Assembly (NCBI GenBank): GCA_018238545.1
Contig: JABCTC010000002.1
Location: 78,423-142,422 of the forward strand
Source: Candidatus Heimdallarchaeota archaeon
Lineage (GTDB): Archaea > Asgardarchaeota > Heimdallarchaeia > Heimdallarchaeales > Heimdallarchaeaceae
Length of the DNA: 64,000 nucleotides
Direction: 5' to 3'
Each line of letters begins with the position of its first letter. Position 1 is the stretch's first letter. Made by a program: the position numbers and the translations under genes. This document shows positions 18,099-18,841 of this stretch, one piece after another. The notes beneath the pieces are model-generated. The model ran no database searches, had not been told where the DNA came from, and saw nothing but the letters and a program-made list of their open reading frames with translations.

Positions 18099-18129
18099 AT
18101 GATGTTCATTTGTCTTCTTGTCTTATTAG
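18099..18129 (+). repeat. Left arm of 31-bp imperfect inverted repeat flanking the tnpB remnant
   Basis: ATGATGTTCATTTGTCTTCTTGTCTTATTAG matches the reverse complement of 18811-18841 at 26/31. Confidence 0.8.
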
Positions 18130-18135
18130 ACAAAG

Positions 18136-18260
18136 CTAAGTACATGTCGTGCTTAGAGGTCATGATATAGGGCGAAGACACTCTATACTCACTCTTAGTG
18201 GATACATCACGTATCCTCTTACCCCGTTCGCCCTGCGTTTAGGCAAAGCTTTCGGATCGC
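18136..18260 (-). ncRNA. Putative TnpB omegaRNA/reRNA scaffold
   Basis: 8-bp stem 18169-18176/18227-18234, inner hairpin GGATAC-N5-GTATCC (18200-18216), hairpin 18136-18156; overlaps tnpB 3' end as known omegaRNAs do. Ends uncertain. Confidence 0.55.
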
Positions 18261-18742
18261 TTTCTATCAATATATTATACGCAGCATTAACATCAGCATT
18301 GATCAAGTGGCCTTGAGCAGAACGAAATAGCCCTCGGTGGATCCTTTTTCCCTTGTACATTTTTCGTTCTTTAGGGAATTCATTGTCTAAAAAACTACTC
18401 TTGGAAGTGTATTGTTCAGGAATGGTCTCCACCATTATCCCTCGCTCAGTTCCTTTATATTTTAGCATATCAATGATTTTCAGGAAGGGGATGGTGACGA
18501 ACATCTGGGTGGTTTTCTTCCAGAAATGGAGATTCTGTTTCCACAGAGAATTATAGCCTATGATCACTTCATGGAGCCCTCGTTCGAGCCACAAGTCTAC
18601 CAAATACTTGGTTAATTTGTGGATAGCATCGTTTAGCTTCCTTCTCCACTTCTATTTGAGCTTATAGTAAGCTGGGCCATACTTGAGTCTGTTCTTCTTC
18701 TGTAATTGTTTTCTCTGTTGCTGCACGCAGTACCTTTACCAT
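18160..18742 (-). pseudogene. tnpB: tnpB pseudogene
   Basis: MVKVLRA joined out of frame to a late segment (QQRKQLQKKNRLKYG..), then an in-frame TAG, then DAIHKLTKYLVD..EQYTSK..RGLF..INADVNAAYNI (TnpB RuvC motifs). Confidence 0.9.
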
Positions 18743-18810
18743 CCTTCGTTGACCTAGAGTTCACTATAAAAACACCCGTACTATTACTATAATTTTACTT
18801 TATTTACAAC

Positions 18811-18841
18811 TTAACAAGACAAAATGACAAATAAACATCAT
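18811..18841 (-). repeat. Right arm of the 31-bp imperfect inverted repeat
   Basis: Reverse complement ATGATGTTTATTTGTCATTTTGTCTTGTTAA; 26/31 to 18099-18129. Confidence 0.8.

Follow-up and report, generated by a model that had tools for sequence, protein, structure and literature searches.

The two inverted arms around the first of two tnpB copies in this DNA were taken in a preliminary description for a palindromic repeat enclosing a tnpB cassette; they are the two ends of a small TnpB-only mobile element, and not a host repeat. The element has fixed ends, carries tnpB and an omegaRNA only, occupies (T)TAT sites, and has AT at both of its junctions as against a single AT where the site is empty. 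We consider it probable that the element is a non-autonomous transposon of the IS607 type whose core is AT and whose ends are unusually symmetric. Its mobiliser was probably an IS607-type TnpA, since lost or unassembled, that supplied serine chemistry in trans.

Anatomy of the two copies

The 64,000-nt stretch analysed here (the window) is the end of a contig (C48) in a 3.63-Mb, 92%-complete genome, G000, which has Heimdallarchaeota as its close relatives. Positions in the window are as follows.

18099..18839, minus strand: copy 1 of the tnpB-only element, 741 bp, an internal-deletion derivative of a 1418-1439-bp element
18840..18843, minus strand: target or transposon-adjacent motif (TAM) TTAT beside copy 1, its final AT (18840-18841) being the shared 2-bp core
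18811..18841, minus strand: left end of copy 1, with AT core, T-rich stretch, and TGTC at positions 13-16 and 21-24 (8-bp period)
18099..18129, minus strand: right end of copy 1, the left end inverted in the same register; terminates in CATCAT and doubles as the 3' part of the omegaRNA
18765..18772, minus strand: archaeal TATA-box-like TTTTTATA, 23-30 nt upstream of the tnpB ATG and kept in all related loci
18160..18742, minus strand: tnpB remnant of copy 1, with ATG at 18742, an in-frame 675-bp deletion after 18721 and a premature TAG at 18652-18654
18099..18263, minus strand: omegaRNA scaffold of copy 1, with stem 18216-18200, stem 18195-18192 with 18158-18155, and hairpin 18133-18118
18079..18098, minus strand: predicted guide of copy 1, host DNA flanking the right end, which from known TnpB biology would match the rejoined empty site only
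63752..64000, plus strand: copy 2, with TTAT at 63752-63755, left end from 63756, TATA box at 63824 and tnpB ATG at 63854

We confirmed the inverted match of 26/31 positions that had been given for the two arms of copy 1, and it exceeds chance, the best of 500 composition-matched resamplings of two 200-nt windows being 22 (mean 19.1). Recomputation also returned the reported gap-free agreement of copies 1 and 2, at 63/64 nt from ATAGTACGGG onward and 34/46 upstream of it. The fall to 34/46 marks no boundary: the similarity continues as far as the TTAT of either copy and stops there. The end of the 64-nt match reflects the loss of 675 bp of tnpB from copy 1. Copy 2 cannot be traced past 64000, since the contig ends there. 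As had been stated before, copy 1 has no target duplication beyond AT and no tnpA.

Copy 1 is dead, because 675 bp were lost in frame and a TAG follows. The deletion, which sits at a short CAG microhomology, takes out REC/WED and RuvC-I and leaves IIGYN, the alternative Glu (PEQYTS) and NAD in the remnant. The TATA-box-like element is the probable promoter of a leaderless transcript of tnpB and omegaRNA. Read from the sequence, copy 1 is flanked by divergent genes at window positions 17014-18039 and 18922-19692, for a radical-SAM-like protein and an ArsR-like HTH regulator, and so may influence their promoters.

The arms are the termini of an element family

BLAST of copy 1 returned about 30 related places, most of which start exactly at 18099. 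Full copies measure 1418-1439 bp and hold a single ORF of 415-425 aa. There are at least 21 copies in G000 (at least 21 right ends were counted) and more than 150 in related Heimdallarchaeota; the family was found in 21/24 genomes of the genus and also in sister genera. Every right end terminates in CATCAT, and left ends begin after TTAT or a near variant of it. The target was TTAT in 20 of the 24 curated copies and ATAT or CTAT in the remainder, a count over copies whose selection required TAT. At both ends TGTC occupies positions 13-16 and 21-24, counted from the A, and arm positions 3-8 match poorly between the ends.

A comparison of 13 copies shows that they are unrelated outside the arms: identity was 0.28 for the left flank and 0.32 for the right, against 0.57 and 0.84 for the two ends and 0.78 for the 4 bases that precede the left end. 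Weight-matrix scans of G000 with both arms, a search that had been suggested as a way to collect empty repeat sites, gave strong matches only at the ends of the element family and thus found no empty repeat. Contigs from three independent runs had loose ends precisely at 18099, and from these loose ends, the unrelated flanks and the family-only matches we conclude that the arms are the element's own termini. The left and right ends of a copy agree better with each other than with those of other copies (22.2 vs 20.1 of 30; 0/10000 permutations), in a test whose copies are kin and not independent and in which one right end was mis-picked. By computation, rejoining copy 1 into a circle would give 50/62 self-complementary positions about AT.

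Another derivative in G000 is a mini-element of ~200 bp (contig C111). A remnant of 55 nt in another genome (L144) consists of left and right ends only, and we take it for a deletion derivative because it is bounded by TAT and CATCAT. In three other genomes there are elements of 381-384 nt that share these ends but contain no gene (L114:720-1104; L147, L150, L156). These retain the TATA box and the omegaRNA, and tnpB is replaced in them by a conserved structured block of ~110 nt that is 78-85% identical between the elements and has no similarity to tnpB; possibly, they are stand-alone guide RNAs. We also observed a full copy with a RuvC-I Asp to Glu change (AIELG; L005, G000 C82:46800-48217), mosaic copies with a subfamily B left end on a subfamily A body (L007 and G000 C8:27568-28997), suggesting that copies may recombine with each other, and, in the closed genome G042, a 721-bp tandem duplication that spans a right end and its flank (L424). 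No recurrent neighbour genes of element copies were found.

Insertion sites and further AT-ended families

Orthologous empty sites were found for the element family of copy 1 (L014 versus C33; L020 versus C21 and L353) and, within genes, for the CCAT family described below (L432, L439, L440, L441), the remaining candidates being too diverged to be readable. At these empty sites the target motif, which ends in a single AT, abuts the right flank directly with no arm sequence, whereas filled sites have AT at both junctions. AT was common to left flank and right terminus in 11/13 copies as bounded, and no duplication longer than AT occurred among the 13. One AT in the empty site and two in the filled one would fit a 2-bp exchange core, a 2-bp AT duplication and a Y1 pair of TAM and TEM alike. 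No excision joint, empty-site joint or circle junction for copy 1 was seen among the contigs, which is no proof of absence.

Two additional families in G000 likewise carry tnpB only; they too have AT at each junction, and their arms are in register but differ in sequence. One has TGAT and TTCCG, the other CCAT and CCC together with an unrelated TnpB of 492 aa. In G042 and G045, single-contig genomes that also belong to Heimdallarchaeaceae, both TnpB clades have the common terminus ATG(A/G)TTTACTTTTT. The most similar element copies are 97.9% identical in G042 and 99.2% identical in G045, and near-identity of this kind argues for recent movement.

TnpB and the omegaRNA

Intact copies match NF040570 (guided_TnpB, E=3e-42), and their TnpB takes the TnpB fold, with 8iaz as the best structural match. 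D186 and D376 are invariant; RuvC-II has Gly (G288), an alternative Glu (E335) lies 47 residues downstream, and there is no zinc finger. The RuvC triad of an OMEGA TnpB system is present in the intact copies and broken in copy 1. Among nine copies dN/dS was 0.09-0.15, and TnpB is under purifying selection.

At 160 loci of TnpB relatives, a serine TnpA was adjacent in 32 and a Y1 in none, with one locus having a Y1 match ~2 kb downstream; one query only was used to look for Y1 neighbours. The Heimdall TnpBs fall in a clade (support 98) with serine-associated members, in a tree that was a quick search on a sample containing no Y1-associated rows. These serine-associated relatives terminate in TAAC-CT, -AT or -GT and not in GG, so that a non-GG core is in line with the lineage; in one pair of them only the final T agrees between the junctions. 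The preliminary description had reasoned from the properties of IS200/IS605 elements, a premise that is probably wrong, as IS607 is indicated both by the anatomy and by the neighbours of TnpB.

The right end serves at the same time as the omegaRNA scaffold, whose conserved 3' 165 nt had 99% of cells paired over 20 pairs. The loop GUGAU of the stem at 18216-18200 pairs with the terminal AUCAU in a pseudoknot that covaries across subfamilies (GUGAG/CUCAU, GUGGU/ACCAU, GUGAC/GUCAU) and that also constrains the terminal CAT; such a guide-adjacent pseudoknot has been described for IS605 and IS607. The right-end hairpin is conserved but is accounted for by the omegaRNA, and by inspection the left end has no conserved hairpin. 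There was no Rfam match at the locus. Since the guide is the right flank, the natural target would be the emptied site. A TAT plus 10-nt seed match for the guide of copy 1 was found nowhere else, and a chain of guide seeds among the flanks was not significant (p 0.28-0.39).

Search for the mobilising enzyme

None of the element copies or genomes examined, G042 included, yielded a cognate tnpA. Y1_Tnp was found neither in the 24 genomes of the genus nor in G042, and Y1 TnpA was present in G040, G044 and G045 solely as canonical IS605 with a different TnpB. No ISL2-type DDE gene (DDE_Tnp_4) was found in the 24 genomes of the genus, and neither IS110 nor IS630 (DDE_3) in G000. An rve family of 15-30 copies is present in G042 and G045; rve is patchy and was not found in most element-rich genomes. 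Tyrosine recombinases are patchy across genomes, with none in G042. IS607-type TnpA was not found in the element-rich drafts G008, G009 and G012, nor in G042, which has ~15 AT-core elements and whose only serine recombinases are two chromosomal ones.

Several genes were considered as mobilisers and set aside. The two DDE_Tnp_1 genes of G000 are single copies without the element ends, an IS481-like DDE gene (G000 C60:19-948) is a single copy with TGT..ACA ends, and Cas1 is represented by one fragment of 107 aa unlinked to the element. The IS607 resident in G000 differs from the element in its ends and in its core, which is GT, and has different motifs at a 10-bp period. This resident is autonomous, encodes a TnpB of 648 aa, and is represented by ~45 segments including mini-derivatives (G000 C82:18149-20904, C71:12832-15584; L003, L004).

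When 24 drafts and two single-contig genomes were searched by end pattern for an autonomous partner, only tnpB copies, deletion derivatives and chance matches came up; the matches in viral contigs were likewise chance, and tnpB was the sole gene found to lie between such ends. Screening codon usage for IS genes that might have been overlooked yielded only the IS481-like gene and an ISL3-like gene. The TnpA subtype of the sister clade, searched for across the phylum, was found in other Asgard groups, though not with ends of the copy 1 type.

The two chromosomal serine recombinases (~240-250 aa; G000 C6:7209-7922 and C88:39684-40430; L394, L400) are conserved, syntenic and largely limited to Heimdallarchaeaceae. 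No conserved tyrosine recombinase was found in Heimdallarchaeaceae, and the two serine recombinases might replace XerA. G000 also has a dispersed structured repeat of ~250 nt in nine copies (C43:118038-118293 and eight other places) that is unlike the element; at L160 the 5' part of this repeat is fused to an element right end.

Proposed mechanism and alternative explanations

In the IS607-type mechanism that we favour, a serine-type transposase acting in trans would bind the repeated TGTC motifs at both ends, pair the ends, and swap strands across the AT dinucleotide. Such an exchange would excise a circle with a near-palindromic junction centred on AT, and the circle would reinsert at a different AT without duplication. 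Going by published work on IS605 and IS607, the TnpB-omegaRNA complex would cut TTAT plus guide, a combination found solely at the emptied donor site, and we propose that repair there would consequently restore the element. We further propose that retention by TnpB selects TAM-bearing insertions, so that families with different TnpBs would show TTAT, TGAT and CCAT, all of which end in AT. Copy 1 would be carried along as a dead passenger, its ends and omegaRNA being intact. IS607 is characterised by short direct motifs that are inverted at one end relative to the other, by a matching dinucleotide, and by the lack of a duplication (PMC6188088); a promiscuous TnpA followed by TAM selection has been proposed for IS607 (bioRxiv 2023.08.09.552727), and in CboIStron the TAM and the scaffold end with their last two bases in common (PMC10690162). 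IS607 is defined in part by a cognate TnpA and by the absence of terminal repeats; we found no such TnpA and did find terminal repeats, and therefore class the element as a non-autonomous, IS607-like variant and not as a member.

The same chemistry could be provided by a domesticated enzyme, one or other of the two chromosomal serine recombinases conserved in Heimdallarchaeaceae, which we regard as unlikely. These two are the only recombinases of the scarless type found in G042, where neither tyrosine recombinase nor Y1 nor IS607 TnpA was found, they occur in nearly all Heimdallarchaeaceae genomes, and the terminus common to two unrelated TnpB clades in G042 and G045 points to a factor of the host lineage. 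Yet both genes are syntenic, single-copy and host-like in their codon usage, upstream of one of them lie inverted sites (ACCTT..AAGGT) that are its own and unlike the element ends, G000 contains three element families with differing motifs, and in G024 (85% complete) a similar AT-ended element is present and the chromosomal serine recombinases were not found. More generally, these elements may form a TnpB-only class of Heimdallarchaeaceae with at least two origins from unrelated TnpB clades, in which the transposase was given up, a domesticated host serine recombinase or an unrecognised enzyme acts on symmetric AT-core ends, and the TAM sets the apparent target preference; this wider proposal we hold to be doubtful, though worth keeping in mind.

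Movement through true terminal inverted repeats by a DDE transposase that duplicates AT, as that of the eukaryotic ISL2EU does, is rather unlikely. The repeats are in register with the termini, an AT duplication would fit the empty sites equally, and TnpB within the inverted ends of DDE elements has been published (PMC10691335); but DDE_Tnp_4 and DDE_3 were not found within the scopes given above, the DDE_Tnp_1 and IS481-like genes lack the element ends, rve was mostly not found, and a poor match at arm positions 3-8 is atypical of DDE termini. An enzyme that escaped recognition, on an unassembled virus or plasmid or unmatched by current Pfam models, or TnpB itself, might pick targets and move the element, and with this in view target motif and end motif do differ with the TnpB family, and the near-identical copies of G042 and G045 moved recently where IS607 TnpA was not found. 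We think this improbable: only tnpB was found between such ends, the right flanks show no guide-seed relatedness, and we know of no strand-transfer activity in RuvC nucleases of the TnpB kind. Peel-and-paste movement of an IS200/IS605 (IS1341-like) element, driven in trans by a Y1 TnpA, the TAM being TTAT and the TEM TCAT, would agree with the right-end hairpin and the lack of duplication, and the two motifs resemble those of Geobacillus (PMC10055086). It is made quite improbable by the lack of Y1_Tnp in the 24 genomes of the genus and in G042, by the left end without a conserved hairpin, and by the serine, not Y1, neighbours of related TnpBs, and it leaves the in-register inverted arms and the AT at both junctions of three families unexplained. 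As for a TnpB cassette that sits inside, or homes to, palindromic repeats already scattered through the genome, the title and first option of the preliminary description, the arms are real and the 55-nt remnant could be taken for such a repeat; this remnant is a deletion derivative, no empty repeat was found in G000, the flanks are unrelated and the empty sites are armless, so that the idea is refuted beyond practical doubt. The second option offered there, a TnpB-carrying element bounded by inverted repeats, was right.

Significance and comparison with known systems

Movement of solo-tnpB elements is usually ascribed to Y1 TnpA in trans, and here a large, recently active group in Heimdallarchaeota, a lineage close to eukaryotes, was found without that enzyme even in a closed genome. 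Since the element ends are short, defined and symmetric, the question of the mobiliser is directly testable by offering a mini-element of 60-200 bp to a few candidate enzymes. A TnpB packaged in terminal inverted repeats in Asgard archaea resembles the packaging of Fanzor, with no descent implied, and compact TnpBs with predicted TTAT, TGAT and CCAT TAMs are on offer. A literature search of incomplete coverage did not turn up such an arrangement of ends in any account of Asgard archaea.

The element shares with the DDE-associated TnpB branches DDE-1 to DDE-6 (PMC10691335) a TnpB inside inverted terminal repeats, and solo copies are moved in trans there; it differs in that duplication never extends beyond AT and no DDE gene has the element ends. 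Like TnpB2 and rearranged-RuvC TnpBs such as TvTnpB (PMC10530073), its protein has the RuvC-II Gly, the alternative Glu 47 residues downstream, and invariant D186 and D376, but it lacks the C4 zinc finger of TvTnpB and its predicted TAM is TTAT as against TGAC. Solo TnpB or IS1341-type elements and PATEs (IS200/IS605) also have tnpB only, a short TAM, gene-less mini derivatives, and an omegaRNA that overlaps with both the end of the gene and the right end; unlike these, the present element has inverted terminal arms, no conserved left-end hairpin, and a host genus in which no Y1 was found.

The IS607 family (IS607, IS1535, ISC1926, ISXfa1, CboIStron; PMC6188088, PMC10690162) combines a serine TnpA with TnpB. 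Our element differs from it in a core of AT and not GG, a motif period of 8 bp, and tnpA in no copy, nor was a cognate partner for it found. Its inverted repeats are also equidistant from both termini, and therefore effectively terminal, whereas published IS607 ends have them at unequal distances. In common with IS607, the same dinucleotide is present at both ends and in the target with no duplication, short direct motifs are inverted between the ends, TAM and omegaRNA scaffold have the same final two bases, the omegaRNA is pseudoknotted, and TnpB belongs among the serine-associated TnpBs. The anatomy of the element is a modest variation on IS607.
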